A stretch of 64,000 bases of DNA from an uncultured Actinomycetota bacterium (GCA_963800125.1 CAWDAC010000030.1:98736-162735), one strand, 5' to 3'; shown: positions 23,256-43,839, counted from the first letter of the stretch. A program made the numbers and translations. Notes: a model not told the origin generated them from the sequence alone.

Positions 23256-23282
23256 TGGGTAGTTACTTCTAGTGACCACCCA
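23256..23282. promoter_or_regulatory. 11-5-11 palindrome, copy 1
   Basis: TGGGTAGTTAC-TTCTA-GTGACCACCCA upstream of xis-like copy 1. Confidence 0.65.
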
Positions 23283-23350
23283 GGCAGCTGGTGACACCCG
23301 GGACGGGGCGCACCGCCTGTTTACACGCGGCGCTGCACCAGATGATCTGG

Positions 23351-23707
23351 TTACGCCGCCGGTAGATCGGTTCGCGGCGGCGTGCCGTGCTGATTCTCTT
23401 CACCGGGCGGAAGACGCCGGCGGTTGGATCGCGCTCGCGATGTCCTGCCGCCAGTTCGTCTGACGCCTTGGACGGCCGCGACGGTGATAGCCACGACGGA
23501 AAGCATGTCGGATACCGTTATTCCGTGGCCATGGCTCAGAGGCATAAGAGTATGTCCCTCGAGCGGCCCATTGGTAACGGGCCAGATAAAGGCGAATAGA
23601 ATCACCGAAAGAATTGAAGCCCGATTCGGTTTTGCTGCACACCACGCAAGTGATGAAAATAGAGCGTTCATTGCCGCGATGCTGTAGAACAACTGCGGCT
23701 CGTCCAT
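23351..23707 (-). CDS. Small membrane protein
   Basis: Three hydrophobic segments; NGPLEGHTLMPLSHGHGITVSDMLS; start placed at ATG 23707. Confidence 0.6.
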   Translation of the reverse strand: MDEPQLFYSIAAMNALFSSLAWCAAKPNRASILSVILFAFIWPVTNGPLEGHTLMPLSHGHGITVSDMLSVVAITVAAVQGVRRTGGRTSRARSNRRRLPPGEENQHGTPPRTDLPAA

Positions 23708-23834
23708 GTATGTGCTCCTAACCCCCATTCGGCGAAGTCGGGTTCCCCCTCTGCCCCGCGTGCGTTCGTCGCGACCAGCTTCCCAGGGTATTCGACGCGA
23801 CCAAGCAAGGAGCAACGCGCGTTCACGGCGTGAA

Positions 23835-23957
23835 CTAGTCCAGAACGATCGGGCACTGCTCGGTGCGGACCATGCGCCGTATGTCGAGCACGCCGAGGTC
23901 GAGGCGCTGCGCCGCCTGGCTGTAGGTCAACAGTTCGCCGCTGCTGGTGGTGGTCAT
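23835..23957 (-). pseudogene. Excisionase-like small protein, copy 2 (truncated at 40 aa)
   Basis: MTTTSSGELLTYSQAAQRLDLGVLDIRRMVRTEQCPIVLD*; paralogous to 23073-23231. Confidence 0.6.
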
Positions 23958-23981
23958 GGTGGTGGTTTGCCTTCGATGCCA

Positions 23982-24008
23982 TAGGTAGTTACTCCTAGTG
24001 ACTACCTA
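23982..24008. promoter_or_regulatory. 11-5-11 palindrome, copy 2
   Basis: TAGGTAGTTAC-TCCTA-GTGACTACCTA upstream of xis-like copy 2. Confidence 0.7.
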
Positions 24009-24160
24009 GGCAGCTGGTCACACCGGGCAGGACCAGCGGCCCAACGAGGCCGGCGTGTGAGAGCACTCGGGATCGGCCCATACGGATTCACACCGGGGAC
24101 ACCCGTTTGATCGCTTACAGCAGCACGGTGACGGCAGTAATCGCTATGCCCGTCAGAGTT

Positions 24161-24430
24161 TCACCTGCGGGCCAGCTTCCGGGTCCGCTCGATGTCGTGC
24201 TGCCACTGCTGGGCCACCCGGTAGACCGCTGAGGCCGACGTCTGCCGCGCGGCCACACAGAGGCCGCCACAGCGGCGGCAGTCGACCGGGTGTGCCTGCA
24301 GCGCGTCGACCTGTGCTCTGATCCAAATGCGAGTTATCGACTGGCCGGCCTCGTCGGCGATTTGGAATAGTCGTAGCGCCACGATTTCGCCGCTGGCCTC
24401 GCGGTCGGCTGGATTGGCGGGGCGGCCCAC
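24161..24430 (-). CDS. Hypothetical element protein with CxxCxxxC
   Basis: 89-aa ORF next to attR containing DCRRCGGLC. Confidence 0.4.
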   Translation of the reverse strand: MGRPANPADREASGEIVALRLFQIADEAGQSITRIWIRAQVDALQAHPVDCRRCGGLCVAARQTSASAVYRVAQQWQHDIERTRKLARR

Positions 24431-24526
24431 GCCGATAAGTGTTCCACCGCGTCGGCGCGGACACCGCGCTACTTACGGATAACGTAGACCACAGCGCAAC
24501 CGCAGGTTCTAGGGATTTACCGGCAA

Positions 24527-24569
24527 GCACAGCGGTATCTTAAGGATTATGGCTGTGTTAACGGACGAA
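24527..24569 (+). repeat. attR-like direct repeat including the phhB start
   Basis: GCACAGCGGTA-TCTTAAGGAT-TATGGCTGTGTTAACGGACGAA. Confidence 0.88.
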
Positions 24570-24833
24570 GAAGTCGACGCCGCACTGCCCGACCTGAACG
24601 GCTGGGAGCGCAGCGAGGGAGTTCTACGCCGATCGATCAAGTTTCCCGCCTTCCTCGACGGTATCGACGCCGTGCGCCGCGTTGCCGAACGCGCCGAGGA
24701 GAAGGACCATCATCCCGACATCGATATCCGCTGGCGGACAGTGACTTTCGCACTGGTCACGCATTCCGCGGGCGGGATCACCCAGAACGATCTGGCGATG
24801 GCTCGGGAGATAAACCAGATCGTCGACCGGTAG
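24549..24833 (+). CDS. phhB: Pterin-4-alpha-carbinolamine dehydratase (Rv1159A-like)
   Basis: [25 protein letters not shown] signature. Confidence 0.93.
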
Positions 24834-25972
24834 CGGCGATCCACGCCAGCGTCGCCAACGTCGCCACGATGTAGATCAGCCCGGCCCACGCCAAGTACCA
24901 GGGCCTGCTGATCTCCCAGATGGTGGGCTGGGCGAAGCTCAGCAGCCACGGCACGCCGACGAGTGTCAGCGCCAGCCAGCCCCACCCAAGGATCCGCGCG
25001 CCCAGTCGCTGACCGCAGCGGGCCGTGCAACAGCCAGATCATCAGCGGCAGCACCCACACCCAGTGGTGGGTCCATGAGATCGGGGACAGCAGCAGTCCG
25101 AACAGCTGCACGACCACGATTCCGCCCAACCGGTCGTTGGTGCCGACGGCACGCCACGCCAGTAGCGCAAGCGCGGCGGTGACGACGATCGCCGCCACCA
25201 CGAGTGGTCCGTAGCCGGCGTCGTGGCCGAGGATCCGGGAGATGCCGCCGCGCCACGACTGGTTGAACGAGGTTCCGATCGGTCCCACCCGCCCGGCGTC
25301 GCCCAGCAGCTCGGTGAAGTAGTAGCGGGTTTGGTCGCCGACCACCAATGCGGACACGCCGATCGTCGCGAAGAACACCACCGCCGAGAACACCACGGTG
25401 CCCCAGCGGCGCACGCCGAGGAAGTACAGTCCGCTGACCGCGGGCGTCAGTTTCACCCCGGCCGCCAGCCCGACCAGCAGCCCGGACACCCACCATCGCG
25501 TGCTGTAGACCGCGTACAGCACGGCCAGCACCAGCAGCACGTTGATCTGTCCGTAGTCGAACGTGCTGCGCAGCGGTTCGAGCCAGATGCCGACGGCTGT
25601 CCACAGCATCGCGACACGTCGACTGGTGGCGAACTCGTCATCCACCGGCAGCAGACGTTGGCTGATGCGCACCACGCCGTACAACGCGACGATGATGCCC
25701 AGTTGCCACGCGAGCGCGACGAGGCCGAACGGCAGCAGGTGCAGCGGGTAGAAGACGACGGCCGCGAACGGCGGATAGGTGAACGGCAACGGGAAATCCG
25801 GCGTCTGGTCGGCATAGACGTAGTCGTAGAGCGTTCCGCGCTCACCCAACGTGCCTGCGCCGCCGACGTACACGTGCAAGTCGACGAAGTTCGCGCCGTT
25901 GGGCGCCAGGTACGTCCACGCCAGGCGCGCGGCGATGCTGACCAACAGCAGCAACGGCGCCGCGGCCGCCAA
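24778..25972 (-). CDS. pimE: GT87 polyprenol-phosphate-mannose mannosyltransferase, +1 frameshift near 25013; start uncertain
   Basis: [40 protein letters not shown]; corrected C-terminus ..[12 protein letters not shown].. Confidence 0.9.
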
Positions 25973-26162
25973 TCGCGCTGGCAGCCGCGGGAGTGTCGTT
26001 GCGGTGGCGGGTGTGGCTTCTATTCGACCGACTCTAGCGATCGGTCACCGAAAGCCGTCGTCTCCGTAACGGTTGCATAAACGCCACACGTGTCACTTGA
26101 GTAACTCTAGTAACGGGCTAGCTTCGGGCTGAGGCGTTCGCCGTCCAACGATTGGGAGAACC

Positions 26163-26781
26163 ATGAAACGCACCGGGAAACTGCTTGTTTCGACCATGAT
26201 CGCCGCCGCGGGCGCGGTCTCGACAGCGCTGGCGCTGAGCACGACGGCGGCGGCCGAACCGGCACCACCGACCAACCCCGGCGTTCCCGGGATGGAAATC
26301 CTCAGCCAGCTGTCGAATGTGCAGGCCGCCGCGCCGCAGGTGATCCAGAGCATCGCGTCGGCCTTGGCCGGCACGCCTGCTACGCCCGTCACGCCGGCAG
26401 CGCCCGCCCCTGGCGCCACCGCCTCGGTGACCCTGCCGCAACCGCCCGCGCTTCCGGCGGCCGCGACACCGGCCGCCGCTCCGGCGACCGCTCCGGCGGC
26501 CGCTCCGGGCAACCTGCTTTCCAATGTGCCGTTGTTGTCGGCGCTTCCGGACCAACTTGCAACCCCGGCCAGTCTGGCCAAGTTGCTTCCGAGCGGGGTT
26601 CCGATGCCCAATCTGGGCGCGCCTGCGGCCTACTGCACCCATCGCCACTGCACCCATCGCCACGGCGCCGGTAACGGCACCCGTCGCAACAGCACCCGTC
26701 GCTGCGGCGCCGGCGGCAGCACCCGTAGTACCGGGCGCGGCAGGCCTCCTGCCCATGACGGTGCTCAGCGCCCTGCCGTGA
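26163..26781 (+). CDS. Ala/Pro-rich secreted protein (Rv1158c-like), +1 frameshift near 26629
   Basis: Signal peptide ending AAAEPAPP; natural ending LLPMTVLSALP* in a shifted frame. Confidence 0.75.
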
Positions 26782-26822
26782 CACCGGAAGCCAACTGCCA
26801 ACCACCGAGCCTTGGGAGAACC

Positions 26823-27785
26823 ATGTCACCGACCGGGAAGCTGTTCGCCAACCTCGCCGTCGCGGTCGGCTCATCGGCAGCAATGCTGTTGGGTCTGACG
26901 GGCACCGCCAACGCCGACCCGGCGTCGCCGCTGCCGATCGATCCCCTGCAGGCGCCGGGCATGTCGGCGGTGCAAAGCCTAGGCCCGGTGATTCAGCAGG
27001 CGGCCGCCGATCCGACCAACGCGGCGTCGATGTTGATGGCGGCCGCGGCGGCGTTCACCGGTAACTCGACGGCACCCGCGGACTCGAGGAACGTGGCGTC
27101 GGCGGTCAACCAGTTCGTAGCCCAACCCGCCGCCGCACACGTCCCGGCGCCGGGTGCGGTGCCGGGCACCGAGGCGCACCTGCCCGCCGGTGTCGACCCG
27201 GCCCACGCCGTCGGACCGCTACCGGAAGCCGCCCCGGCGCCCGCACCCGAGGCCGCACCGCCCGCCCCGGCGCCCGAGGCGCTCCCCGCACTGGCACCCG
27301 AGGCACCGCCCGCACCCGCGCCTGAGAGCGCAGCGCCGGCTCCGGAGGCAGCCGCGAATCCGCAGTTCGGTCCGGACGCCCCGCCGACGCAGGACTTCAT
27401 GTTCCCGTCGATCAGCAACGGGTGCCTCAAGGACGGCGCCAACGTACTGGCGACCGCCCTCTCGGTGGCCGGGCCCGCCAAGATTCCGGCACCCGGCCCC
27501 GGCCCGGGCCAGACCGCCTATGTGTTCACCGCGGTCGGCACACCCGGTCCTGCGGCGGAGCAGCGACTGCCGCTGAACGTCACCTGGGTGAACCTGACCA
27601 CCGGCAGGTCCGGTAGCGCCACACTCAAGCCGCGCCCGGACATCAACCCGGAGGGCCCGACGACGCTTTCGGCCATTGTCGACACCGGCTCGGGCAGCGT
27701 CATGTCGACGATCTTCGGCCAGGTGACCACCACCGAGATGCAGTGCCAGTTCATGCCCACCATCGGCTCGACGGTGGTGCCCTGA
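26823..27785 (+). CDS. Rv1157c-like secreted Ala/Pro-rich protein
   Basis: Own RBS (TTGGGAGAACCATG) and signal peptide; conserved C-terminus TQDFMFPSISNGC...CQFMPTIG. Confidence 0.88.
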   Translation: MSPTGKLFANLAVAVGSSAAMLLGLTGTANADPASPLPIDPLQAPGMSAVQSLGPVIQQAAADPTNAASMLMAAAAAFTGNSTAPADSRNVASAVNQFVAQPAAAHVPAPGAVPGTEAHLPAGVDPAHAVGPLPEAAPAPAPEAAPPAPAPEALPALAPEAPPAPAPESAAPAPEAAANPQFGPDAPPTQDFMFPSISNGCLKDGANVLATALSVAGPAKIPAPGPGPGQTAYVFTAVGTPGPAAEQRLPLNVTWVNLTTGRSGSATLKPRPDINPEGPTTLSAIVDTGSGSVMSTIFGQVTTTEMQCQFMPTIGSTVVP

Positions 27786-27800
27786 CCCCTAAGTCTCGGG

Positions 27801-27947
27801 TCAGTACGCCATGAACAGGATGGCGTCGCGGTCGTACTCGCGACCGGGGTGCGCCTCGGACAGGTGTGCCTGGGCCTTCTCGACGAGGTCGTCCTCGTCC
27901 TTGCCGGTGATCGCCTCGCCGCACGGGCAGTTCAGGTGTGTCTTCAT
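27801..27947 (-). CDS. DUF1059-like small protein (48 aa)
   Basis: MKTHLNCPCGEAITGKDEDDLVEKAQAHLSEAHPGREYDRDAILFMAY; not in the ORF track. Confidence 0.8.
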   Translation of the reverse strand: MKTHLNCPCGEAITGKDEDDLVEKAQAHLSEAHPGREYDRDAILFMAY

Positions 27948-27979
27948 TCCTTCACGATCCCACAGTCAAGATGTAGGGC

Positions 27980-28639
27980 ATGGAGTTATACGACGTCATG
28001 CGCACGACGGCTGCGGTCCGCCGATTCACCGATGACCCACTGCCCGACGACGTACTCGAGCGCATCCTCGACAACGCCCGATTCGCGCCGAGCGGCGGCA
28101 ACCGCCAGGGCATGCGGGTGGTGGTGGTCCGGGACCGGCAGACCCGCGAGGCGCTCGTCGAATTGAGCGTTACGGGTGCGCGCCGCTACATCGCGCAAAC
28201 CCGGAATGGCGAAGGACCGTGGAATCCCTTGCAGCCCATGCAGGTTTCCGACGAAGAGTTGGCAGCCACCGAGGTACCGCCGTACCTGGGCGCACCCTTG
28301 CTGGGCGCCGGCGCAGTGCTGGTGGTCTGCGTGGACCTCAACGTCGTCGCGGCGTTCGACCAGTACCTCGACCGCATCGGCGTCATCCCTGGCGCATCGG
28401 TGTACCCGTTCGTCTGGAACATCCTGCTGGCGGCGCGCAACGAGGGATACGGCGGAGTGCTGACCACCATGGCGGTGGCCGAGGAACCACGCGTCAAGGA
28501 ACTGCTCGGAATACCGGATGACTACGCGATCGCGGCTCTCCTACCGATCGGCAAGCCGGTAAAGCAGGTCACCAAGCTGACGCGCAAGCCCGTTGCCGAG
28601 ATCGCCACCAAGGAGCGCTTCGACGGAGAGCCGCTCTAG
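27980..28639 (+). CDS. Nitroreductase-family protein
   Basis: MRTTAAVRRF, ARFAPSGGNRQG, NILLAARNEGYG. Confidence 0.9.
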   Translation: MELYDVMRTTAAVRRFTDDPLPDDVLERILDNARFAPSGGNRQGMRVVVVRDRQTREALVELSVTGARRYIAQTRNGEGPWNPLQPMQVSDEELAATEVPPYLGAPLLGAGAVLVVCVDLNVVAAFDQYLDRIGVIPGASVYPFVWNILLAARNEGYGGVLTTMAVAEEPRVKELLGIPDDYAIAALLPIGKPVKQVTKLTRKPVAEIATKERFDGEPL

Positions 28640-29433
28640 AGACCACGCGTACCGAGCCACGTGTGGATCCGGTCGGCTACGGACTCCCACCCTCGCTCCA
28701 GCATCATGTCGTGTCCCATGCCTGGAAAGAATTCGGCGTCCGTGCGGTATGCCTGCGCCGTCGCGCGGACTTCCGCCTGGGTGATCGAGCCGTCGGATTC
28801 CGCACCCAAGACGAGCATTGGGGTGGTAACGCGCTCGGGTCTGGGCCGGCTGAGGAACAACTGGTCGAACGACCATTTCGCCCCGCGTTCTTCCTGCAGC
28901 CGTGCGGCGTTGCGCGCGACAAGGTCTGCGGGGGTCTGTGCGGAGAAGAAATTCTCCCGGGCAAGCGCTGGGGTGCCGCCGACAAGACGCAACGACTTGC
29001 CCGACATATACGTCAGGATGGCGCGCAACGGATGGCGCTTGAACTGACGCATGACGTACTTGATGCTGCCTTGCGGCGGCGTTGACGCCACCAATACCGC
29101 TGCGGGGGCGGCGTATGACTGCAGATAGTGCTGCACGACGAATCCGCCCATGGAATGGGCGATCACTACCGGTGAGCTCGGAAGGCCCTCGGCAACCGAC
29201 GCGACATCGTCGACATAATCCGCCATCGAGGTGCGCACGGACCTAGGCATTTGGCTTCCTCCGTGGCCCCGCAGGCTGAGAGCTAGCGCGCGGTATCCAC
29301 TCTCGGCGAAGAAGTCCAGGAAATGTTCGTTCCAGCACCATGCGGCGTGCCATGCCCCGTGGACGAACAGAAGTGGGGCGGGGTGAGCCGCGGTGATTGT
29401 CCCCTCGTCGATGACCTCGAGGCCATGCTCCAC
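28636..29433 (-). CDS. Alpha/beta hydrolase
   Basis: FVHGAWH, AHSMGG nucleophile elbow, GMGHDMML. Confidence 0.9.
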   Translation of the reverse strand: MEHGLEVIDEGTITAAHPAPLLFVHGAWHAAWCWNEHFLDFFAESGYRALALSLRGHGGSQMPRSVRTSMADYVDDVASVAEGLPSSPVVIAHSMGGFVVQHYLQSYAAPAAVLVASTPPQGSIKYVMRQFKRHPLRAILTYMSGKSLRLVGGTPALARENFFSAQTPADLVARNAARLQEERGAKWSFDQLFLSRPRPERVTTPMLVLGAESDGSITQAEVRATAQAYRTDAEFFPGMGHDMMLERGWESVADRIHTWLGTRGL

Positions 29434-29436
29434 GGG

Positions 29437-30015
29437 TTAGCTTTTGGCCGCCTTGGCCGCCGCTTTCATCTGCTTCTTGTACGACCGCACCTTTTCCAGC
29501 GAGCCGGCGTCGACGATGTCGGCCACCGAAATGTGCGTGCCCGCTTTGCCGTATTCACCCGCCGCCTCGCGCCAGCCCTTCGGGGTCACGCCGTACTGCT
29601 TGCCGAGCAGCGCCAGGAAGATCCGCGCCTTCTGCTCGCCGAAGCCCGGCAACTCCTTCAGCCGCGCTAGCACTTCCGCCCCGTCCGGGTTGCCCGCGAC
29701 CCACAGTGCCGTGGCGTCACCGTCGTAACGGTCCACGATGATCTGCGCCAGCGTCTGGATCCGCTTTGCCATCGATCCTGGAAACCGGTGTATGGCAGGC
29801 CGTTCCGAACACAGCGCAGCGAACTTCTCCGGGTCGTAGTCGGCGATCTCGCGGGCATCCACGCCGCCGATCCGGTCGGCGATCTTCTTCGGCCCGGCGA
29901 ACGCCGTCTCCATCGGAACCTGCTGATCGAGAAGCATGCCGACCAACAACGCAAACGGATTGGAGTCCAGCAGAGCGTCGGCTGCCGGATCCTGGACAAG
30001 CTGCAGTTTCGCCAC
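29437..30015 (-). CDS. HhH-GPD-type base-excision repair-family protein (Rv1156-like)
   Basis: GMLLDQQVPME, LKELPGFGEQKARIF. Confidence 0.9.
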   Translation of the reverse strand: MAKLQLVQDPAADALLDSNPFALLVGMLLDQQVPMETAFAGPKKIADRIGGVDAREIADYDPEKFAALCSERPAIHRFPGSMAKRIQTLAQIIVDRYDGDATALWVAGNPDGAEVLARLKELPGFGEQKARIFLALLGKQYGVTPKGWREAAGEYGKAGTHISVADIVDAGSLEKVRSYKKQMKAAAKAAKS

Positions 30016-30128
30016 GTCGTCAGTCTAGATCGGCGGTTTGACGCCACTCCTCGCCGGGAACCCCTCACCTGTGAGGTAGCGCCCTTTGTGCTGTGAGTCG
30101 CACATGTCATCGAGGTCAGGAGTCAGCG

Positions 30129-30476
30129 GTGCCCGAAATCGACCTTCCACTGCTGGAAGCGCCCAGCGGCCACAAATTCGTCGAGATACAAGCCAGCCCC
30201 GAGTTTCAGGAACTCCGAAGTAGGTTGCGCCGCTTCGTCTTCCCGATGAGCGCGTTGTTCCTGATCTGGTACTTCGCCTACGTGTTGCTGGGCGCTTTCG
30301 CCCACGACTTCATGGCGACCAAGGTCTGGGGCAACATCAACATCGGCCTGCTGATCGGCCTGGGGCAGTTCCTGTCCACATTCATCATCACGGGCATCTA
30401 CGTCGTGTGGGCTAACCGTGAATTCGATCCACGCGCCGAAGCCATCCGCTCCAAGATCGAAGGCGGTGCGGCATGA
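30129..30476 (+). CDS. DUF485 small membrane protein (partner of the symporter)
   Basis: SPEFQELRSRLRRFVFP, YVVWANREFDP; overlaps the symporter start. Confidence 0.88.
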   Translation: MPEIDLPLLEAPSGHKFVEIQASPEFQELRSRLRRFVFPMSALFLIWYFAYVLLGAFAHDFMATKVWGNINIGLLIGLGQFLSTFIITGIYVVWANREFDPRAEAIRSKIEGGAA

Positions 30477-32113
30477 CCGTCAATATCGTGGCCGCAGAAG
30501 GCGACACCGTCGGTAATCCCGCCGCCAACATCGGCATCTTCATCCTCTTCGTCGCTGTGACGCTCTACGTCGTGATCCGTGCGAGCAAGAAGAACGCCAC
30601 CGCCGACGAGTTCTTCACCGCCGGCCGCGCGTTCACCGGCCCGCAGAACGGCATCGCGATCTCCGGTGACTATCTGTCCGCGGCAAGTTTCCTCGGCATC
30701 GCAGGCGCCATCGCCGTCTACGGCTACGACGGCTTCCTCTACTCCATCGGCTTCCTGGTCGCCTGGCTCGTCGCACTGCTCTTGGTCGCCGAATTGCTGC
30801 GCAACGCAGGCAAATTCACCATGGCCGACGTGCTGAGCTTCCGGCTGAAGCAACGGCCGGTACGGCTCGCCGCCGCGACCACCACCCTGGCGGTGTGCCT
30901 GTTCTACCTGCTGGCGCAGATGGCAGGCGCAGGCGGGTTGGTGGCCCTGCTACTCAATGTCTCCAGCGATATCGGCCAGGCATTCGTCATCGCGGTGGTC
31001 GGAGTGCTGATGATCGTCTACGTGCTGATCGGCGGGATGAAGGGCACCACCTGGGTGCAGATCATCAAGGCCGTCCTGTTGATCGGCGGCGCCGCACTGA
31101 TGACGGTCATGGTGCTGGCCAAGTTCGGAATCAACTTCTCCGAGATGCTCGGCGCCGCCCAGTCCGCGGTCTCCGCATCCACCGATGAGACCGTCGCCGG
31201 CCGCGACGTCTTGGCGCCCGGCGCCCAGTACGGCGCGTCGCTGACGTCGCAGATCAACTTCGTCTCGCTGGCGCTGGCCCTGGTGCTGGGCACGGCAGGC
31301 CTGCCGCACGTGCTGATGCGCTTCTACACGGTGCCCACCGCGAAGGAAGCCCGCCGTTCCGTCGTGTGGGCCATCGCCCTGATCGGCGCCTTCTACCTGT
31401 TCACCTTGGCGCTGGGCTACGGCGCCGCGGCCCTGGTCGGACCCGACGAGATCCTCGCGGCCCCTGGCGCGCAGAACTCCGCCGCACCCCTGCTGGCATT
31501 CCACCTCGGCGGTGTTGTCCTGCTCGGCGTCATCTCGGCGGTGGCGTTCGCGACGATCCTCGCGGTGGTCGCCGGCCTGACGATTACCGCGGCAACCTCG
31601 TTCGCGCACGACATCTACGCCAGCGTGCTGAAGCGCCACCAGGTCGACGAGTCCGAGCAGGTGCGGGTATCCCGCATCACCGTCGTGGTGCTCGGCATCC
31701 TCGCGATCGCGCTGGGCATCCTCGCCGCCGAGCAGAACATCGCGTTCCTGGTCGCGCTGGCGTTCGCCGTCGCCGCGGCCGCCAACCTGCCGACCATCCT
31801 GTATTCGCTGTACTGGCAACGGTTCAACACCCGGGGTGCGTTGTGGAGCATGTACGGCGGGCTGATCTCGACGATCGTCCTGATCATCTTCTCGCCCGCG
31901 GTATCGGGTGCGAAGACCGCGATGATGCCGAACGTGGACTTCGCCTGGTTCCCGTTGGCCAACCCCGGCATCGTGTCGATCCCGCTCGCGTTCATCCTGG
32001 GCATCGTCGGCACGCTGACCTCGTCCGACCGTAGCGATCCGGAGCTGAACGCGGAGTTCGAGGTGCGGGCGCTGACCGGCGTCGGCGCGGAGAAGGCGGT
32101 CGCCGCGCATTGA
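30473..32113 (+). CDS. actP: Cation/acetate (monocarboxylate) symporter, SSS family
   Basis: NGIAISGDYLSAASFLG, GLPHVLMRFYTV; many transmembrane segments. Confidence 0.88.
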   Translation: MTVNIVAAEGDTVGNPAANIGIFILFVAVTLYVVIRASKKNATADEFFTAGRAFTGPQNGIAISGDYLSAASFLGIAGAIAVYGYDGFLYSIGFLVAWLVALLLVAELLRNAGKFTMADVLSFRLKQRPVRLAAATTTLAVCLFYLLAQMAGAGGLVALLLNVSSDIGQAFVIAVVGVLMIVYVLIGGMKGTTWVQIIKAVLLIGGAALMTVMVLAKFGINFSEMLGAAQSAVSASTDETVAGRDVLAPGAQYGASLTSQINFVSLALALVLGTAGLPHVLMRFYTVPTAKEARRSVVWAIALIGAFYLFTLALGYGAAALVGPDEILAAPGAQNSAAPLLAFHLGGVVLLGVISAVAFATILAVVAGLTITAATSFAHDIYASVLKRHQVDESEQVRVSRITVVVLGILAIALGILAAEQNIAFLVALAFAVAAAANLPTILYSLYWQRFNTRGALWSMYGGLISTIVLIIFSPAVSGAKTAMMPNVDFAWFPLANPGIVSIPLAFILGIVGTLTSSDRSDPELNAEFEVRALTGVGAEKAVAAH

Positions 32114-32230
32114 CCGGCGGTCGCCGACCGCACACGCGTCGATGTCGCCGTGCGGCAGACCGTCACAAGACGCGAACTTTGAGTGCGTCTACTCAGATCC
32201 TTTTGTCCAGCTCAGCCCTAAATTTGGTGC

Positions 32231-34037: not shown

Positions 34038-34089
34038 AGCCGCAGCCTAGCGCGGCGCACCTAGCGCCGTCGCGGGCTTTTCGTCGGCC

Positions 34090-34542
<453 letters not shown>

Positions 34543-34602
34543 CTACGTCGGCCGCCACCAGGGCCGACCCCGATTCGACGGCGGCGTACCTACTATGAGC
34601 GA

Positions 34603-35972: not shown

Positions 35973-36796
35973 CCGAGAAGACAGACGGCACCGCACTGAC
36001 CGGCGTTTCCGAGACTGCGCTCCTCACGCTGCTGGTGCGCGCCACCGAGGCGCGCAGGCCGGATTCCGTCATCGATGACCCGATGGCGATCAAGCTGGTC
36101 GACGCCATCGACTTCGACTTCGCCAAGTTCGGCTTCACCCGCCGCCAGGACATGGCGTTGCGGGCGCTGGCCTTCGACAACTACACCCGGCGCTACCTGA
36201 TCGACCATCCGTCGGCCACCGTCGTCGCCCTCGCCGAGGGGCTCCAGACCAGCTTCTACCGCCTGGACGCGTCGGGCTTGGGGGACCAATTCCGTTGGCT
36301 CACTGTCGATCTGCCACCGATCATCGAGCTTCGCGAGCGACTGCTGCCGCACTCTGATCGGGTCTCGATGTGCGCGCGTTCCGCGCTGGACTTCGGCTGG
36401 ATGGACCTGGTCGACCCAACCGAGGGGGTGTTCATCACCACCGAGGGCCTGCTGATGTACCTGCAGCCCGAGGAGGCCCTCGGCCTGATCACCGAATGCG
36501 CCAAGCGCTTTCCCGGGGGCCAGATGATGTTCGATCTGCCGCCCGTGTTGTTCGCGGCGTGGGCTCGCCGCGGCATGCGTATGTCGCGGCGCTACCGGGT
36601 GCCGCCCATGCCGTTCACCCTCTCGGTGTCCGACATCGCAGACCTGGCCAACACCGTGCCCGGCGTACGCGCCGTGCATGACCTGCCGATGGCGCCGGGC
36701 CGGGGCAAACTGCTCAACGCGATGATGTGGACGGCGCAGCGGGTTCCACTGCTGGATCCGGTCCGGCCCGTCCTCACCCTGCTCGAGTTCGGTTAG
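35969..36796 (+). CDS. omt: Class I SAM-dependent O-methyltransferase (Rv1153c-like), paralog 2
   Basis: [34 protein letters not shown]. Confidence 0.85.
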
Positions 36797-37158
36797 CCGA
36801 ACGCGGACTCGACATACTTAAGCGCCTCATCCTTGCCGATGCCCAGCGCCTTCGCCGCCGTCGCGTACGTGTGCGCCGCCGTCGCCAGCGCCGCGTCGGC
36901 GGGGTCGGTGCGCGCGACGAAAGTGCCGAAGCGGCCACGGGTTTCGAGGATCCCGGCCGACTCCAGCTCGCGATACGCGCGAGCGACGGTGTTCACCGCC
37001 ATTCCCAGCCGCGCCGCGAGTTCACGAACCGTCGGCAGCCGGGTACCCGGCGGCAGCCGGCCACCCCGAATCCCGTCGATGATCTGACCCCTGAGCTGGT
37101 CGAATAGCGGCTTGCTTCCCTGCGGGTCACCCTGAACCCATTCCCCCAAATTGGCCAC
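36793..37158 (-). CDS. GntR-family regulator (Rv1152-like)
   Basis: [27 protein letters not shown]. Confidence 0.92.
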
Positions 37159-37195
37159 GTGCCTAGTATCGCGCAAGACCCGCTAGTTTGGTGAT

Positions 37196-37912
37196 GTGCA
37201 ATTGACTGTGCTCAGCGGGGCAGGTATTTCCGCAGAGAGCGGGGTTCCGACGTTCCGCGATGTCGAGACCGGGCTGTGGGCAAAAGTCGACCCGTACGAG
37301 ATATCGAGCGCACAGGGCTGGCACCGGCACCCGGAGAAGGTGTGGGCGTGGTACCTGTGGCGGCACTACCTCATGCAGTCGGTCGAGCCGAATAACGGCC
37401 ATCGAGCCGTCGCGGCGTGGCAGGACCACGCCGAGGTCCACGTCGTCACCCAGAACGTCGACAACCTGCACGAACGGGCAGGCAGTGAACACGTGTACCA
37501 CCTGCATGGCAGCCTCTTCGAATTCCGTTGCGACCGTTGCCAAGCCGAATACCGCGGCGCCCTGCCCGAGATGCCCGAGCCGGTCGAAGTCGCGCAGCCG
37601 CCGCAGTGTGTTGTCTGCGGGGGCCTGGTCAGACCCAACGTGGTGTGGTTCGGCGAGCCGCTGCCCGACACCGCCTGGCAGAAATCTGTCGATGCCGTCA
37701 ATAACGCCGACGTCGTGATCGTGGTTGGCACGTCGTCGATCGTCTACCCAGCCGCCGGGCTGCCGGAACTGGCGCTGGCCAACGGCATTCCGGTTGTCGA
37801 GGTCAATCCCGAGCGCACACCGCTATCGGATGCCGCGACGGTCACGGTGCGGGAATCCGCCGCCGGCGCACTGCCAGGGCTGTTGCAGCGACTGCCTGCG
37901 CTACTCGGCTAG
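37196..37912 (+). CDS. cobB: NAD-dependent protein deacylase (sirtuin)
   Basis: [32 protein letters not shown], two Cxx[10 protein letters not shown]. Confidence 0.95.
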
Positions 37913-37925
37913 GAGCTCACCGACC

Positions 37926-38580
37926 CGCGAACCTGTAATTAACGCGGAGAAGTACGAGTTGAGACGTTGGCATCGACGAATCTTCCGCGACGTTAATTTC
38001 CTCGAGCGGCACGAGGTTTCATTTCGAGACCGGATCGCGGGAGCCTGGCTTCGGTCAGGACGGCAGGGGATCATCGCGGGAGTGGCCGCTGTCGGCGCTT
38101 CACGGCGCACCGTGGGTCGACGATGAGGTCCCGATCGAGATGATCTGGTCCAACACCAGACCACCTGCCGGTGTCATCGCGTGCGATGAACGCTTTGCGG
38201 AAGACGAGATCACGCGAGTCGCGGGCATTCCCGTGACCGCACGTGCGGCGGACGCCGTTCGATCTCGGCCGCCACCCACCGCGTCATGAAGCACTGGCCC
38301 GACTCGACGCCCTGATGTGGGCGTCACCCTTTTCGACTGCGGACGTATTGCCGCTCGCCAAACGCTATACCGATGCTCGGGGCCCGCGGCAGATTTGTCG
38401 GATGCCGCCGCTTGTGGACGGGCGCGGACTCACCGAGGGAAACGGACCGACCGCAAGCAGTACGTCAAGGACCTCCGCGTGATGCCAAAGCTCGAGCGCA
38501 TGGGCTGGATCGTGATCCGGGTAATCAAGGAGGACAACGAGAATGACATCATCGAGCGAACTCGGACGGCGCGTGTTGTC
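37926..38580 (+). pseudogene. DUF559/AbiEi-like (Rv3517/Rv1482c-type) remnant
   Basis: Fragments LRRWHRRIFRDV, RTPFDLGRH...ALARLDAL and KLERMGWIVIRVIKED in different frames, with gaps. Confidence 0.6.
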
Positions 38581-38664
38581 CCCGAGGCTGGCCTCCGAGA
38601 CTGTAGTTACCTCGGAATAGTGCGAGTGGAGCGCGCGATAACGACAGGCTCGGCGATTCGTCGG

Positions 38665-39315
38665 CTAGGCCGCGGGCTTTTCGGCGCGGCCGATGGCGTA
38701 CTCCGCCACCGGCGTCGGAAACCATGCGGGAAGGGCAGGTTCGCGACGCGTGCTCTCCACCGCGAAGCCGGCACCGACGATTGATGCCTCGGTGTCGCGA
38801 TGGGTGTGGCAGTTGCCCATCAATCGCGGCCACACGGTTGCGTCTGCGATTTTCTGTAGCCGCCCCCGAGCGCCGGTACTGGCGACGTGCTCGAGGTAAC
38901 GCAGTTCGCCACCGGGACGCAACAGCGAAAACAGTTGATGCAGAACACTGTCCGGGTCTTCGATGGAACAGAGCACCAGCGAGCACACCACGGCGTCGAA
39001 CGGCTCACCTTGGGAAAGCCCTGCGAATTTCTCGACGGTACCTGTGCTCACCATCACCGGAACAGTGGCCCTTCCTGCGGCTTCCCGGGCCAGCGGAACC
39101 AGCCGTCGTTCCGGCTCGACGGCGACCACCTCGGTCACCGTCGGCGGGTAGAACGCGAAGTTGGTCCCGGTCCCGGCACCCACTTCCAGCACGCGGCCGG
39201 ACAAGCCTTCCAGGTTCTCGCTCCGCAGCTGCTGTATCTCCTCGGTTTCATGGTTGGACAAGAAGGTCCACAGCCGGGCGAAGAACGGGTTGTCTGTGGT
39301 GTCGCTGTCGGTCAC
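38665..39315 (-). CDS. Class I SAM-dependent methyltransferase (Rv1147-like)
   Basis: VLEVGAGTG, FDAVVCSLVLCS, LRPGGELRYLEH. Confidence 0.92.
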   Translation of the reverse strand: MTDSDTTDNPFFARLWTFLSNHETEEIQQLRSENLEGLSGRVLEVGAGTGTNFAFYPPTVTEVVAVEPERRLVPLAREAAGRATVPVMVSTGTVEKFAGLSQGEPFDAVVCSLVLCSIEDPDSVLHQLFSLLRPGGELRYLEHVASTGARGRLQKIADATVWPRLMGNCHTHRDTEASIVGAGFAVESTRREPALPAWFPTPVAEYAIGRAEKPAA

Positions 39316-40010
39316 GAGTTCCTTTCTGGCGGTTGGCGGTTCAGCAACCAGTCGACGGTCTGCTGGGGTGTCACGTCGTCATCCTCGACCAGCCCGAGCA
39401 CGATGTGGCCCAGACACGCCGCCGACAACGTCTGGTCGGCGAATTCCTCGACGTCGCCCCACGGCAGGTACGGCTTCGAGATCAGCAGCGCTGCAACACC
39501 GTGTGCGGCGGTCAGCAGCTGCAGTGCGGCCGTAGTCGGATCGCCCGGCGGGTAAATGCCCTCGTCGATCAACGACTCTACCGAGTTACGCAGGTGCAGG
39601 AACGCCGAGCTGTTCAGCGTCATGTCGACGTCGCTGCCAGGCCTGCCTTCGCCCATGGTCGCGATGCGATACAACTCGGGCGTTTGCGTGGCGAAGCGGA
39701 CATACGCCAGGCCCTGTGCGCGCAGCACGTCGATGGTCGACGGCTGGTCGGCCGCCACTCGACCCATCTCCTCGTTGAGCTTCTCGAAATACCGCGCACA
39801 CACCGCGTCCAGCAGCGCGTCCTTGTCGGCGAAGTGCAGGTAGATCGACGGCGGCGTGACGCCGACCCGCTCTGCCACCGACCGGATCGACACTGCCTTG
39901 GCGTGCCCGGTTTCCAGCAGCAACTCGGTGGTGGCGTCGAGGATTTCGTCTCTCAGCTGCTCACCGGATCCGCGAGGGGAGCGCCTGCGACGCAACGGCT
40001 GGGTTACCAC
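39312..40010 (-). CDS. TetR-family regulator
   Basis: ILDATTELL...SIRSVAERVGVTPPSIYLHFADK; start placed at GTG 40010. Confidence 0.9.
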   Translation of the reverse strand: MVTQPLRRRRSPRGSGEQLRDEILDATTELLLETGHAKAVSIRSVAERVGVTPPSIYLHFADKDALLDAVCARYFEKLNEEMGRVAADQPSTIDVLRAQGLAYVRFATQTPELYRIATMGEGRPGSDVDMTLNSSAFLHLRNSVESLIDEGIYPPGDPTTAALQLLTAAHGVAALLISKPYLPWGDVEEFADQTLSAACLGHIVLGLVEDDDVTPQQTVDWLLNRQPPERNS

Positions 40011-40012
40011 GA

Positions 40013-42295
40013 CTAACCAGTGTCCGTCACCAAGACCGCGGCCCGCTCCCGTTTCTCCGCACGGGGAATCAAGTCGTCGGTAGATTCGCTGATACCGATC
40101 CGTTCGTGCAGCCGGGCCAACGGCTTGGGCGCCCACCAACACCACCGGCCGAGCAAGTGCATGAACGCGGGCACCAGGGCCATCCGCACCAGGGTGGCGT
40201 CGACGAGCACCGCCAGCGTCAGCCCGACGCCGAACATCCGCATGAACGCCACCTGGGCGGCGATCAACGCCGCGAACGAAATCGACATCACCAGCGCGGC
40301 GGCGGTCACGACGCGGCCCGTGCGGGCCAGACCGAGCGCGACGGCCTCATCGTTGTCCGCCCGCGTCTTACCACCCAAGGACAGCCAGTATTCGCGCATC
40401 CGGCTCACCAGGAACACCTCGTAGTCCATCGAGAGCCCAAAGGCGATGCAGAACAACAACACCGGCAAGTTTGCGACGAGCGTTCCGGTAGGCGTGGTGC
40501 CCAGCGCGCCGAGATGGCCCTCCTGGAATATCCACACCAAGGCGCCGAACGCCGCGGTCAACGACAACACGTTGAGCACCAACGCCTTCAGCGGCAGGAT
40601 CACGCTGCCCGTCAACAGGAACAGCAGCACGAACGTGATCGCGGCGATTATCGCCAGCACGACAGGCAGCCGTTCGGTGATCGCCACCGAGCTGTCACGG
40701 TTGATCAGCGCAACCCCGGTCAGTTGCACCGGTTTGCCCGCAGGCGTGCTCACCGCGCGCAGGCGGTCCAGCTGGGCTTCGGAGGCGTCGGAGAACAGCG
40801 GCGCGTTGCTGCCGACGGTCAAAAACGCGCTGTCTTCCTTCAGTCCGGTCGCGGCCGACGGCGGCCCGGCGGGTGCACCGTTGACGAATGTCCCTGCCGG
40901 CGAGGACACCGACGCCACGTCGGGGACTTGGGACAGCCGCGCGGCGTAGCGGCCGAGATCCTCGGGCGTTACCCCGGTCGCGTCGGGAATGACGACGGTC
41001 ACGTTCCTGGCCGAGTCGACGGCGAAATCGTTGCGCAGTTGGTCACCGACCTGGCGGGCGGACAAGGACTCGGGCAGCACGCGGTCGTCGGGGAAGCCCC
41101 ACTTCGCGCCCAGGAACGGCGCGCCAAGCAGTAGCAAGAGCGCAATGATCGCGACACCGATCGGAATCGACCGGCGCATAACGAATTTGGTAGAGCGGTA
41201 CCAGAAGGTGTCCTCCACCGGCTTGGGAGCCGGCTCGGGACGCCCCAGCGCCCGGCGCAACATGCGCCGCACGTCCAGAGAGTCCAGCCGATCGCCGAGC
41301 AGCACGATCGCCGCAGGCGCCACCACGATCGCCGCGATGGCGGCGAACGCCACCACCGCAATGCCCGCGTAGGCGAAGGACTTCAGGAAATACATCGGGA
41401 ACAGCACCATCGCCACCATCGACAGCGCGACGGTCATCGCCGAGAACAGCACGGTCCGGCCCGCGGTGGCCATCGTGCGGATCAGCGCCTCGTCCCGCCC
41501 TGACCCGGCGGCCAGTTCGTCCCGGTACCGGCTGACGATCAGCAGCGTGTAGTCGATGGATAGCGCGAGGCCCATAGCGACCGTCAGATTGAGCGCGAAG
41601 ATCGACACATCGGTGACAAAGGTGACCGCGTGCAGCACCGCCATCGACCCCAAGATCGCGAAGGCGCCGACCGCCACCGGAAGCGCCGCCGCCAGCAGCC
41701 CGCCGAACACCCACACCAGCACAAGGAAGCTCAGCGGGATCGCGATGGATTCCATGAGCAGCAGGTCTTTTTCGCTTTGACCGCTGATCTGTACATAGAT
41801 CATCACCTCGCCGCCCGCGCGCACGGTGACTCCGTCGCGGTCGTGCACGAGTCGCTCGGTCAGCTCCTTGGCGTGCTTCTGCGCTTCGCTCTCACCGCCG
41901 GTGATGCCTGCGACGATCAGACCGGTCTTGCCGTCCTTGCTGACCAGCGCCGGGGCGGCCGACGGCGGCGAGGTCCATGCCGACGTCACGTCTGCCACGT
42001 ATGGCGACGCCTGCAGCTGCCCGGCGATGTCGGCGCCGACCGCCCGCGCTGCGGCGCTCTGCGCGCCGGCCTCGGACGTCACGCTGATCAGGAGCTCCAT
42101 GTCGCCCTGCCCGAACTTGTCGACCAGCACCTTGCTGGCTTGGGCGGACTCCGACGTCGGGTCCTGGAATCCGCCGGCCGACAGGCTCTTGGTGACCGGG
42201 ATGCCGAAGATGCCCGTGGCCACCATCACCAGCATCGCGATGACGATGATCCGCTTCGGCGCGGTGATAGCGAGCCGAGCGATCCCTTGCAGCAC
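40013..42295 (-). CDS. mmpL13: MMPL-family transporter, uninterrupted MmpL13-type
   Basis: Two MMPL repeats, GLALSIDY and GLSMDYEVFL; position matches Rv1145/1146. Confidence 0.85.
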   Translation of the reverse strand: MLQGIARLAITAPKRIIVIAMLVMVATGIFGIPVTKSLSAGGFQDPTSESAQASKVLVDKFGQGDMELLISVTSEAGAQSAAARAVGADIAGQLQASPYVADVTSAWTSPPSAAPALVSKDGKTGLIVAGITGGESEAQKHAKELTERLVHDRDGVTVRAGGEVMIYVQISGQSEKDLLLMESIAIPLSFLVLVWVFGGLLAAALPVAVGAFAILGSMAVLHAVTFVTDVSIFALNLTVAMGLALSIDYTLLIVSRYRDELAAGSGRDEALIRTMATAGRTVLFSAMTVALSMVAMVLFPMYFLKSFAYAGIAVVAFAAIAAIVVAPAAIVLLGDRLDSLDVRRMLRRALGRPEPAPKPVEDTFWYRSTKFVMRRSIPIGVAIIALLLLLGAPFLGAKWGFPDDRVLPESLSARQVGDQLRNDFAVDSARNVTVVIPDATGVTPEDLGRYAARLSQVPDVASVSSPAGTFVNGAPAGPPSAATGLKEDSAFLTVGSNAPLFSDASEAQLDRLRAVSTPAGKPVQLTGVALINRDSSVAITERLPVVLAIIAAITFVLLFLLTGSVILPLKALVLNVLSLTAAFGALVWIFQEGHLGALGTTPTGTLVANLPVLLFCIAFGLSMDYEVFLVSRMREYWLSLGGKTRADNDEAVALGLARTGRVVTAAALVMSISFAALIAAQVAFMRMFGVGLTLAVLVDATLVRMALVPAFMHLLGRWCWWAPKPLARLHERIGISESTDDLIPRAEKRERAAVLVTDTG

Positions 42296-42465
42296 GTCGT
42301 GTCCCTCCGCAAAACCCGACTAGAAGCTATCGTCGATAACTTATCAACGGTAACTCAGCAGGGTCAACGCGTCACTTCTACGGTGATCACGGTGCCGAGC
42401 CATCGAACGTTCAGCGCGCGAGAGGGCGGTTCACAGCATGCTCACAGCCGCCTAGGCTCGGCGAC

Positions 42466-43000
42466 ATGGCGACCACCGAACGCACCGTCGAAACCTCCAC
42501 ATCACTGACCGATCTGGGCCTGTTGATCCTGCGTATCGGCATCGGCGCCGCGATGGTTCAGGCCGGGCTCATAAAGCTTCTTCGACTTCAGCACCACCGT
42601 CGGCTTCATGGAGTCCGGCGGCTGGAGCATGCCGACATTCGCCGCCCTCATGGTGTCCGTCGCCGAGACGGCCGGCGGGATCGGACTCATCTTTGGCGTC
42701 CTTACACCGCTGGCCGCGTGCGCGGTGATCGGCGCGATGATCGACGCGTGGGCGGTCAACGTCTCTGAGGGCGCGTTTTGGTCGGCACCGTTCAACTTGC
42801 CGTTCTTGCTGGCCATCGGCGCGACGACGCTGCTGTTCACCGGCCCAGGCGCCTACTCCGTGGACGCCCGGGTGTTCGGCCGTCCGCGCTGGTCGCCGGG
42901 CATCGCGCTGGGACTGCTCGTGCTGGCGATCGTCGCGGCCATCCTTACCTGGATCCTGCTCAACGGGACAAACCCGATCCATTTCAGTTCACCGGGGTAA
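42466..43000 (+). CDS. DoxX-family membrane protein, +1 frameshift near 42578
   Basis: LGLLILRIGIG, AETAGGIGLIFG, GPGAYSVD. Confidence 0.8.
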
Positions 43001-43114
43001 TCCCTGGTCAGCTACTCGCGAGTAGCCTCGGACCCTACCCGGCGGTAAGAATTGCCACGATTTTCCGAATCGTGACTCAAAGATTCCTTAATGGTGATGG
43101 TTACTGTTCAGTAC

Positions 43115-43246
43115 ATGTGGATCGACGACACCAGTGCTGATGTCATCAAGGTTGACTTCGAGGCGCTCTACCACGGCGATGTCCTGGTAGAGGGTGACAC
43201 CTCAGAGCAGCTCGACGACGGCCCCGCACTGCCCACCGCGGTCTGA
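43115..43246 (+). CDS. 43-aa acidic small protein
   Basis: MWIDDTSADVIKVDFEALYHGDVLVEGDTSEQLDDGPALPTAV; TACTGT -10 box 7 nt before ATG. Confidence 0.65.
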   Translation: MWIDDTSADVIKVDFEALYHGDVLVEGDTSEQLDDGPALPTAV

Positions 43247-43344
43247 GCCAACGCGCTCGGCTTGAGCGCTTTGACGTGTCAGACAGTTTGCCCTGTACGG
43301 GGCGTTCGTTGATTCCTCATTGACTCGATATTGACCCGATTCCC

Positions 43345-43606
43345 TTAGGCGGGAACCCTCTCAGATTCCGCTGACTCGACCATGTCGTCGAGCCTGCCGA
43401 TGATCAGTTCTTCGGCCTCGTCCACGATGCGTGTGACCAACTCGCCGACCGTCGGGATGTCGTTGATCAGGCCCATCGCCGTGCCGACCGACCAGATACC
43501 GGCCTCCACGTCACCGTCGTCGAACACCTTGCGACCACGGACCCCTGCGACCAGGTCCTTGATGTCGTCGAACTGACCGCCATCGTTGAGAATCTCGACC
43601 ACCTCA
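43345..43606 (-). pseudogene. Nitronate monooxygenase-family gene, C-terminal fragment
   Basis: EVVEIL..DLVAGVRGRKVFDDGDVEAGIWSVGTAMGLINDIPTVGELV. Confidence 0.85.
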
Positions 43607-43610
43607 CCGG

Positions 43611-43778
43611 CTTGCCGAGCAGCTCGACGTCACCGAGAGTGCCCGCGACGTGTGTGCGCTGGGGTTGCGGTTGCAGTCGGTGCTCGAGGAGCTCGACAAC
43701 ATGCCGCAGTCAGGCCCAGTGAGTAAGGCTGATGAGATTGCTGAACGGCGGCGTCAGCGTCGGGCGCAGCACAGCTAG
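43611..43778 (+). pseudogene. Terminase small subunit-like C-terminal fragment
   Basis: LAEQLDVTESARDVCALGLRLQSVLEELDNMPQSGPVSKADEIAERRRQRRAQHS*; pattern recalled from actinophage TerS. Confidence 0.5.
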
Positions 43779-43812
43779 GCACGTTCGCATATAGAGACGG
43801 GCTGTAGGTGCC

Positions 43813-43839
43813 TAGGTAGTCACTAGGGGTAACTACCTA
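43813..43839. promoter_or_regulatory. 11-5-11 palindrome, copy 3
   Basis: TAGGTAGTCAC-TAGGG-GTAACTACCTA; 43809-43839 matches the reverse complement of 23982-24012 at 30/31. Confidence 0.75.

Follow-up and report, generated by a model that had tools for sequence, protein, structure and literature searches.

Many integrases use the stem-loops of tRNA genes as their att sites (the sublocation rule), and the cluster A mycobacteriophages carry stoperators (the L5 gp71 sites), asymmetric 13-bp sequences that occur about 30 times per phage together with a repressor gene. To our knowledge, no integron-like or dif-module-like system has been described in mycobacteria, and little is understood of how their small accessory genes travel among prophage remnants, satellites, and hot spots of the chromosome. 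In other hosts, the T4-like phages contain the PeSL, composite terminator/promoter motifs (Arbiol et al. 2010, PMC2839356; Comeau et al. 2014, PMC4122927), and the plasmids of Acinetobacter contain dif modules, whose pdif sites are thought to be served in trans by the host Xer proteins (PMC6449649). Here, we analyze a 64,000-nt stretch of DNA from an uncultured Actinomycetota bacterium (GCA_963800125.1, CAWDAC010000030.1:98736-162735; the whole stretch is called the window in the following), in which one short palindrome occurs three times, twice in one accessory region and once in another. The palindrome is found to be the core of a junction element of about 50 bp, which stands at one end of small gene modules (0.3-1.8 kb) in the accessory DNA of environmental mycobacteria.

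The oriented conserved block of the junction element reads TGCCTrGGTAGTCAC TAGnn GTAACTACC. A box comes first and is followed by the left arm TGCCTrGGTAGTCAC, the loop TAGnn, and the right arm G(T/G)AACTACC, the last three making up the 29-mer form of the site (TGCCTrGGTAGTCAC-TAGnn-G(T/G)AACTACC). When the copies are oriented alike, the right-arm side is occupied by a few conserved module types, while the left side is locus-specific, starting exactly at TGCCT. The type A module, for example, is composed of the site, 168 nt of non-coding DNA, a convergent gene encoding a small secreted protein rich in Cys and Trp, and a tail, with its limits at C54:18256-18733 (478 nt; labels with C denote contigs of the source genome and labels with L the compared loci, L004 being C54). 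The mean pairwise identity over seven type A loci is 0.95 for the site, 0.94 for the non-coding 168 nt, 0.81 for the open reading frame (ORF), and 0.84 for the tail, and it is 0.33 and 0.31 for the outer left and right flanks, respectively. Twelve unrelated left flanks precede type A, and at least four different ones precede type B. Five of the six left flanks that recur are, in turn, joined to differing right-hand modules, and the left flank of the second window copy also precedes the C54 site, where the right-hand module is a different one. Shared modules behind many unrelated flanks, shared flanks before different modules, and the co-oriented arrays described below all bear out in part the original prediction, which had been made from the window alone and in which the palindrome was suggested to mark a family of mycobacterial satellites or a site-specific system of cassette shuffling; a family of elements in mycobacterial mobile DNA is indeed marked by it.

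The position of the break is the same from junction to junction. It recurs at AGS|TGCCT at both ends of the modules, that is, at the left junctions and at the right ends of types A, B, and C, and it is not spread through the motif, unlike what homologous exchange would predict. Two markers inside the site can be followed. Position 6 is a G in 13/13 type A loci versus about half of 46 unique sites, and the dinucleotide of the loop is largely module-specific, the whole 29-mer accompanying the right-hand module. Since these internal markers stay with the right-hand module, the exchange has to take place within the first five bases of the 29-mer or further left. A lox-like reading would place it in the center of 5-7 nt (7 bp in the original prediction), which is not supported; the break lies at the outer edge of the left arm, with both arms and the loop remaining on the side of the right-hand module.

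The modules are joined head to tail, and each one closes with a box of its own, which is loosely conserved and ends with AGC or AGG. This module-end box is followed either directly by the next site or, in solitary modules, by a remnant consisting of the left arm and TAG without the right arm; solitary modules with a box and a left-arm-like remnant of this kind are L123, L118, L183, and L049. Two to four sites are present in 9 of 20 neighborhoods, with a spacing of 0.33-2.75 kb between sites, and all of the 20 adjacent site pairs, taken from these neighborhoods and from other arrays, are co-oriented.

The left half of the site has the character of a coding sequence. The box, the left arm, and the TAG read ...(L)V(L/I)-P-G-V-T-S-C-L-G-S-H-stop in one subfamily and ...D-P-T-F-T-S-C-L-G-S-H-stop in the other, so that a coding tail has its stop in the loop and the site is a stop-codon-spanning stem-loop. 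For 53 unique sites, the stretch TGC..TAG has entropies of 2.26, 1.99, and 4.09 at codon positions 1, 2, and 3, respectively, and no codon periodicity is seen in the same sites to the right of the TAG; the left half of the site evolved as coding sequence. In the window, the central TAG of copy 1 is the stop of a 44-codon frame (23403..23269). No full-length parent gene ending in ...PGVTSCLGSH is present in the source genome or in the compared loci, the frames upstream of the sites being mostly short. In two genomes, the tail follows paralogues of an alpha/beta-hydrolase-cyclase protein that are interleaved with sites (L239:11890-16650 and L240:9990-11750; the protein has 512 aa, with an alpha/beta-hydrolase part plus a cyclase part). 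One of these cyclase paralogues has an in-frame TGA and then 40 codons ending in ...DPTFTSCLVNP-stop inside the site, and in others the same tail is frame-shifted, a pattern that could be due to readthrough, frameshifting, or an assembly error.

The two arms, on the other hand, do not evolve as a paired stem. Only two compensated changes are observed versus more than 25 uncompensated ones, and the inner pairs are usually mismatched, as C·A in 34 and as A·G in 23 of 46 unique sites. What is kept is thus the sequence rather than the pairing, which argues for recognition by a protein and not for a hairpin alone.

The site is rare, patchy, low-copy, and confined to foreign DNA. A 53-nt site profile run over the 6.2-Mb source genome gives exactly six sites, namely the three window copies, C54:18256, C26:147422, and C26:148077. 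All six lie in integrase, insertion sequence (IS), or phage-remnant DNA; the C54 site adjoins an integrase/xis/primase-polymerase/helicase element and the C26 sites an IS256-family transposase and integrase fragments. The claim that the palindrome is seen only in foreign DNA therefore holds for the genome as a whole, core DNA having none; a motif common in core intergenic DNA would have refuted the original prediction. None of 400 other genomes of the family, of which 36 belong to the same genus and 364 to other genera, has the 23-mer core. When the genus was sampled more densely, 19 of 401 genomes had the 29-mer (up to three mismatches allowed), mostly in one or two copies each, versus 0 of 365 genomes from other genera of the family. 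Further copies come from metagenome-assembled genomes of soil, from five contigs of metagenomes, and from a contig predicted to be viral. A loose scan of the collection with GTAGTYAC-N5-GTRACTAC returned mostly chance matches across phyla, and the true relatives were chosen by the extended motif.

The number of copies per genome is 1-6 (six here and 1-3 in the others), which falls short of the tens to hundreds of extragenic copies of repetitive extragenic palindromic (REP) elements with a RAYT transposase. An IS200/IS605- or REP-like single-stranded DNA element was also considered and rejected, in view of the low copy number and of module right ends that have no hairpin; the GTAG "head" may be a coincidence. 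Phage and plasmid records give no DNA match for 22800-24560, and Rfam has no family on five site loci at E values up to 1. In the literature, 12-mers of the site occur in no paper, and 9-mers matched unrelated papers only. We thus found no earlier description of the site sequence, or of a module system of this kind in mycobacteria, in the literature, in Rfam, or in phage or plasmid records.

Some individual sites have features of their own. The one at C26:148026-148121, which lies 45 nt past the stop codon of the IS256-family transposase, has a 58-nt insertion exactly between the TAG and the right arm. At L211:1530-1575 (minus strand), one site is directly followed by three 13-nt iteron-like units (GTGCAGTAACGGG), the unit including the right-arm word GTAAC. 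Each site also holds one to three CTAGs (CCTAGG, CACTAGG), in spite of the scarcity of this tetranucleotide in the genome (3,320 in 6.2 Mb, roughly six-fold below the base-composition prediction).

Turning to the window itself, the pattern GGTAGTYAC-N5-GTRACYACC with up to two mismatches occurs at three places, versus 0.04 expected from a dinucleotide-preserving shuffle (n = 100), and this number is reached in 0/100 shuffles. The core 23-mers are at 23258-23280, 23984-24006, and 43815-43837. All three predicted palindromes were located in this way, and the 30/31 identity between copies 2 and 3, in inverted orientation, was reproduced. Copy 3 together with its flanks forms a 15-5-15 palindrome, which can also be read as 14-7-14. 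The layout that is typical of a simple tyrosine-recombinase core (lox/FRT/dif type), with two inverted arms of about 9-14 bp and an asymmetric spacer of 6-8 bp between them, is present (GGTAGTCAC-TAGnn-GTAACTACC), and the proposed similarity of the arms and the short asymmetric center to such a core is compatible with this geometry. A TAGTTAC at 17168, which had been taken as a half-site at the integrase, is a lone 7-mer with 62 occurrences in the genome (0.64 per 64 kb), which makes it indistinguishable from chance and lends it no support as a part of the system; another stray one is at 38604 in the window. The coordinates of the sites and of the features around them are collected in Table 1.

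Table 1. Sites, modules, and genes of the two accessory regions (window coordinates)
Feature	Position	Strand	Remarks
Site copy 1	23258..23286	-	TGCCTGGGTGGTCAC TAGAA GTAACTACC; left arm with one change
Site copy 2	23984..24012	-	TGCCTAGGTAGTCAC TAGGA GTAACTACC
Site copy 3	43809..43837	+	TGCCTAGGTAGTCAC TAGGG GTAACTACC
Box of copy 1	23287..23301	-	GTCCCGGGTGTCACCAGC; reads V-P-G-V-T-S in frame ending at the loop TAG
Box and ~45 nt of left flank of copy 2	24013..24066	-	reads ...GLVGPLVLPGVTS
Integrative element 1	17050..24569	.	7.5 kb, bounded by 43-nt direct repeats
Xer-like tyrosine integrase of element 1	17151..18104	+	Pfam Phage_integrase 1.5e-28; NCBIfam XerC 1.2e-42, below cut-off
xis-like gene 1, 52 aa	23073..23231	-	excisionase-family helix-turn-helix (HTH); Pfam HTH_17 3.5e-4; TIGR01764 6.7e-5; phrog_66
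xis-like gene 2, 40 aa	23835..23957	-	shorter paralogue, 75% identity to gene 1
Type C module 2	23284..24012	-	copy 2, xis-like gene 2, membrane protein gene, tail with box
Membrane protein gene, 118 codons	23707..23351	-	in type C module 2
Foreign block, 1,575 bp	43606..45180	.	in place of 373 bp of the nitronate monooxygenase gene
3' fragment of TerS-like gene	43606-43778		opens the foreign block
Type B module, far end truncated	43809..44275	+	site, conserved 77-nt non-coding stretch, convergent gene
Type B convergent gene, 103 codons	44225..43914	-	

Copies 1 and 2 head two stacked, or tandemly duplicated, xis-like type C modules at the cargo end of element 1, in the pterin dehydratase locus. 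Both are contained in a 190-nt direct repeat (23112-23301 and 23838-24027, 84% identity) and are therefore not independent of each other; the same repeat also duplicates the 5' untranslated region (UTR) and the first codons of both xis-like genes. Type C module 2 is 88.6% identical to the L033 module in another genome, and the recurring type C module in the other genome sits downstream of an integrase related to that of element 1. The att repeats of element 1 (17050-17092 and 24527-24569) are 88% identical to each other and unrelated to the palindrome, and the right one spans the start codon of the gene for pterin-4a-carbinolamine dehydratase. In a relative, the same MutT/pterin-dehydratase gap is occupied by an insert of 680 nt without an integrase (L118:3150-3850), which is composed of a type A module plus flanks and is bordered by the 12-nt direct repeat AATATGGCTGTG. 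The start of the pterin-dehydratase gene is a recurrent landing site. Further inside element 1, a 21-nt unit is repeated about 26 times in frame (20508-21305, PAPKAVA/PAPDAVA), and this tract takes the place of the first part of an AT3-acyltransferase/SGNH gene (19239-21344, minus strand).

The third copy stands at the head of a type B module that is truncated and belongs to the remnant of a phage or satellite; this remnant contains TerS and has destroyed the gene for the nitronate monooxygenase. The edges of the foreign block were set by an empty-site comparison with two relatives, and the fragments of the monooxygenase were found by Pfam. The type B module is 97.7% identical to that of L049 and 94.7% to that of L073, the left flanks being different. 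Its 103-aa protein has no Pfam (there is a single weak sub-threshold match), PHROG, or NCBIfam family and no phage record. A paralogue of this protein without a site (81.6% aa identity) is present at C43:119107-119415, adjacent to a type A-like gene and an integrase. An intact 87-aa homologue of the TerS-like gene is found in contig C55 (phrog_1459, 4.7e-6); no palindrome comes after it, and a cos/pac site beside the TerS fragment, which we had considered as a candidate, was rejected. Close to the block, at the start of an SDR gene region (45545-45583), a motif of about 32 nt occurs that forms short tandem arrays at dozens of loci in related genomes and is reminiscent of MIRU-like families of intergenic repeats.

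The accessory regions are separated by 19-20 kb of ordinary core DNA, which is collinear with a relative. The idea that the palindrome links the two regions finds no backing here, as there is no sign of an exchange and no joint between them in the contigs. The two regions are independent relics of related modules, and all three window copies are passengers or relics, with no working link across 19.8 kb.

As regards the function of the site, we tentatively favor a recombination joint for the exchange of modules that is site-specific at AGS|TGCCT and served by an enzyme in trans, a reading that we stop short of calling probable. It is based on the fixed position of the break, the passage of the intact site with one partner, the conservation of the sequence, the co-orientation of the arrays, and the enrichment in integrase-bearing DNA; as to the last point, 8 of 20 sites have a tyrosine recombinase at a distance of up to 10 kb, and the integrase counts per genome give an estimate of about 7% for 20 kb of DNA taken at random. 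The junction would be cut and rejoined site-specifically at or next to AGS|TGCCT, both the cut position and the enzymatic nature of the step being inferred, by a recombinase that would be supplied in trans. In this way, modules could be gained, piled up in a single orientation, and lost again, in the manner of integron cassettes or dif modules.

A number of observations weigh against such a joint. Tandem duplication could yield co-oriented sites without any recombinase, as in the case of copies 1 and 2 and of the cyclase paralogue arrays. The junctions are asymmetric, with a perfect full site on the left and a left-arm remnant only on the right, an arrangement that is not accounted for by a simple two-sided crossover. 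Recombination products in the form of circles, deletions, or inversions were not found, nor any joints in four metagenome contig sets (contigs only), and the DNA from copy 2 to copy 3 has the same order as in the relative. The low copy number implies that the activity, if any, is rare. Tyrosine recombinases are absent within 10 kb of 12 of the 20 sites, including the three largest arrays. Homologues of the element 1 integrase (at least 50% identity) are missing from 14 of 22 site-bearing genomes and, in the eight that have one, never adjoin a site. Finally, the site does not seem to resemble the actinobacterial dif consensus.

The original prediction had put forward the integrase of element 1 as the partner of the palindrome. 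Given that this integrase has 43-nt att repeats of its own and the distribution of homologues just described, it is probably not the partner. It also scores 51.6 bits against the integron-integrase model (cut-off 265), and no integron platform (integrase, attI, and Pc) was found. No att repeats were found for the C54 integrase element. At C52:11471-13822 and C39:162390-164766, three tyrosine recombinase genes stand in a row, as in recombinase-in-trio elements, with no site nearby.

The main rival, possible although on balance somewhat unlikely, is a homology-driven junction similar to the PeSL. Here, many accessory modules would have a small regulatory end-piece in common (the end of an ORF with its stem-loop, and possibly a start signal for the next gene), and they would be swapped by ordinary or phage-type homologous recombination within its 30-50 nt, with no dedicated recombinase. 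This would account for the absence of a linked recombinase, and a precedent is documented (PMC2839356, PMC4122927). It is also in keeping with the stop codon in the loop, with the presence of module sequences in soil RNA runs (see below), and with the stability of the hairpin, which in canonical copies amounts to -18 to -25 kcal/mol, with fold z values of -3.3 and -4.65 on the strand transcribed for the type A and type B genes versus -1.27 on the other strand. However, the markers stay on the right in all 13 type A loci, which confines the crossovers to the first 5 nt, too short for homologous exchange. No promoter-like hexamers were found at the window copies, a sigma-70-type promoter scan of 22900-24600 having given no match (mycobacterial promoters are poorly captured by such a scan), and the arms lack covariation. 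The hairpin is also devoid of a U-tract: no T-run follows it on either strand, and a scan for intrinsic terminators does not return the sites. A reading of the GGAAC/GTAAC arm as an extracytoplasmic function (ECF) sigma promoter was rejected, the spacing to a CGT-type -10 being inconsistent between module types.

An alternative that we consider improbable is that the site is only an RNA 3'-end hairpin, which would end or stabilize the transcripts of highly expressed small accessory genes, the boundaries being a by-product of gene capture. In types A, B, and E, the gene indeed points at the site, and on that strand the C/A mismatch becomes a G-U pair and the fold improves. The type A and B sequences, including the non-coding stretch beside the hairpin, are moreover present in at least 18 RNA-labelled soil or rhizosphere metatranscriptome runs each, with identities up to 99-100%. 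Some of these runs are very small, and the type B protein turns up with 99-100% identity even where a run has no more than 20-26 million letters; type C is found in three RNA runs only. These runs were searched as assembled contigs without strand information, in which DNA carry-over is possible. The hairpin alone, however, would not need the sequence that is kept across unrelated genes, and it should show compensatory covariation, which is lacking, the two inner pairs being mismatched in half to three quarters of the unique sites. For type C, type F, and the cyclase modules, it is the mismatched strand that carries the gene, downstream of the site. Some RNA contigs also pass through the site into other left flanks, and a U-tract is missing.

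The 168-nt stretch of type A (C54:18285-18452, that is, L004:1524-1691) deserves a separate comment, as it is better conserved than the adjacent ORF of the secreted protein (0.94 and 0.81, respectively). It folds with the z of -3.3 on the gene strand, belongs to no Rfam family, and is present in many soil metatranscriptome assemblies, and it may represent either a small RNA or a 3' UTR with a structure of its own. Small ORFs in this stretch were considered and rejected, since 3/9 copies have frame-breaking indels and the substitutions are mostly non-synonymous.

That the site is an operator, bound by a dimeric repressor or by the xis-like HTH protein and switching the downstream genes, is improbable as well: the arms are kept without covariation, as would fit a protein site, copies 1 and 2 each lie 27 nt ahead of an xis-like ATG, and the C54 locus as well as the viral contig L173 have HTH genes at up to 2 kb from the site, but an xis-like gene follows only about 5 of about 46 unique sites, orphan sites keep the intact 29-mer in genomes with no HTH or integrase gene nearby, no promoter-like match overlaps the site, and an operator alone leaves the module boundaries and the arrays unexplained. 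Most sites are behind convergent small genes or between unrelated genes, with varying gene orientation, so the operator ahead of xis-like genes that had been proposed for the window is not supported by the comparison. The palindrome is a module-boundary element and not an operator for the xis-like genes; the RNA hairpin and the operator cover parts of its anatomy, not the boundaries.

If the site-specific joint is carried to its full consequence, soil mycobacteria would own a cassette system, with single-gene modules that end in a stop-codon-spanning stem-loop site, are excised as circles, and are re-inserted at AGS|TGCCT by a recombinase in trans, either the host Xer or an enzyme that has escaped recognition. 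We regard this complete scheme as unlikely. If true, it would represent short co-oriented arrays that are functionally like integron cassettes or dif modules and have an unrelated site, the cargo being highly expressed small secreted proteins or proteins of unknown function, and even cyclase paralogues. If the homology-driven junction were true instead, the PeSL idea, in which conserved regulatory end-pieces serve as points of exchange, would extend from lytic coliphages to actinobacterial chromosomes. The 29-mer is, in any case, a concrete probe for module movement, which can be searched, cloned, and assayed, and the transcripts of the modules in many soil and rhizosphere metatranscriptomes suggest that the cargo may matter in the field.

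It is instructive to compare the site with the systems mentioned at the outset. Like the stoperators, it is one short sequence multiplied in mobile mycobacterial DNA, often in intergenic gaps overlapping stops and in a fixed orientation; unlike them, it is 29 bp long and palindromic, occurs 1-6 times per genome, and has no repressor, and no phage record matches the site region. With the tRNA stem-loop att sites it shares symmetric stems around a loop of 5-7 nt at the 3' end of a gene, and also the feature that such a gene end is carried and duplicated by the incoming DNA. The gene end is here a short protein-coding tail with no intact parent in the source genome, however, and the visible break lies outside the stem and not in the loop.

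The resemblance to the PeSL is that of a small conserved stem-loop motif between small ORFs (located, for the PeSL, in hyperplastic regions), which marks the boundaries of indels or replacements, joins unrelated sequences, and has no dedicated recombinase encoded beside it. The differences are that the present site belongs to a bacterial chromosome and integrated elements and not to a lytic phage genome, that no promoter could be recognized and the loop holds the stop codon of a conserved coding tail, and that the internal polymorphisms remain linked to one side, an argument against crossovers inside the motif. The pdif modules are likewise discrete accessory modules bounded by short sites with inverted arms, found in many contexts and with no recombinase of their own, but the pdif sites alternate in orientation and resemble the chromosomal dif, whereas the sites described here are co-oriented.

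Compared to the integrons, no integrase, attI, or Pc was found for the present system, and its arrays are short, with 2-4 sites. The site is also short for an attC (29-35 bp) and is conserved in sequence and not in structure only, several modules have the opposite gene orientation, and the modules are seemingly expressed on their own. On the other hand, the modules are, like integron cassettes, small and mostly single-gene units with one imperfect palindromic site at one end, stacked in the same orientation; read in reverse, they mostly consist of an ORF and then the site. As for the integron cassettes, the exchange takes place at the outer edge of the palindrome, and solitary units are found at secondary sites.

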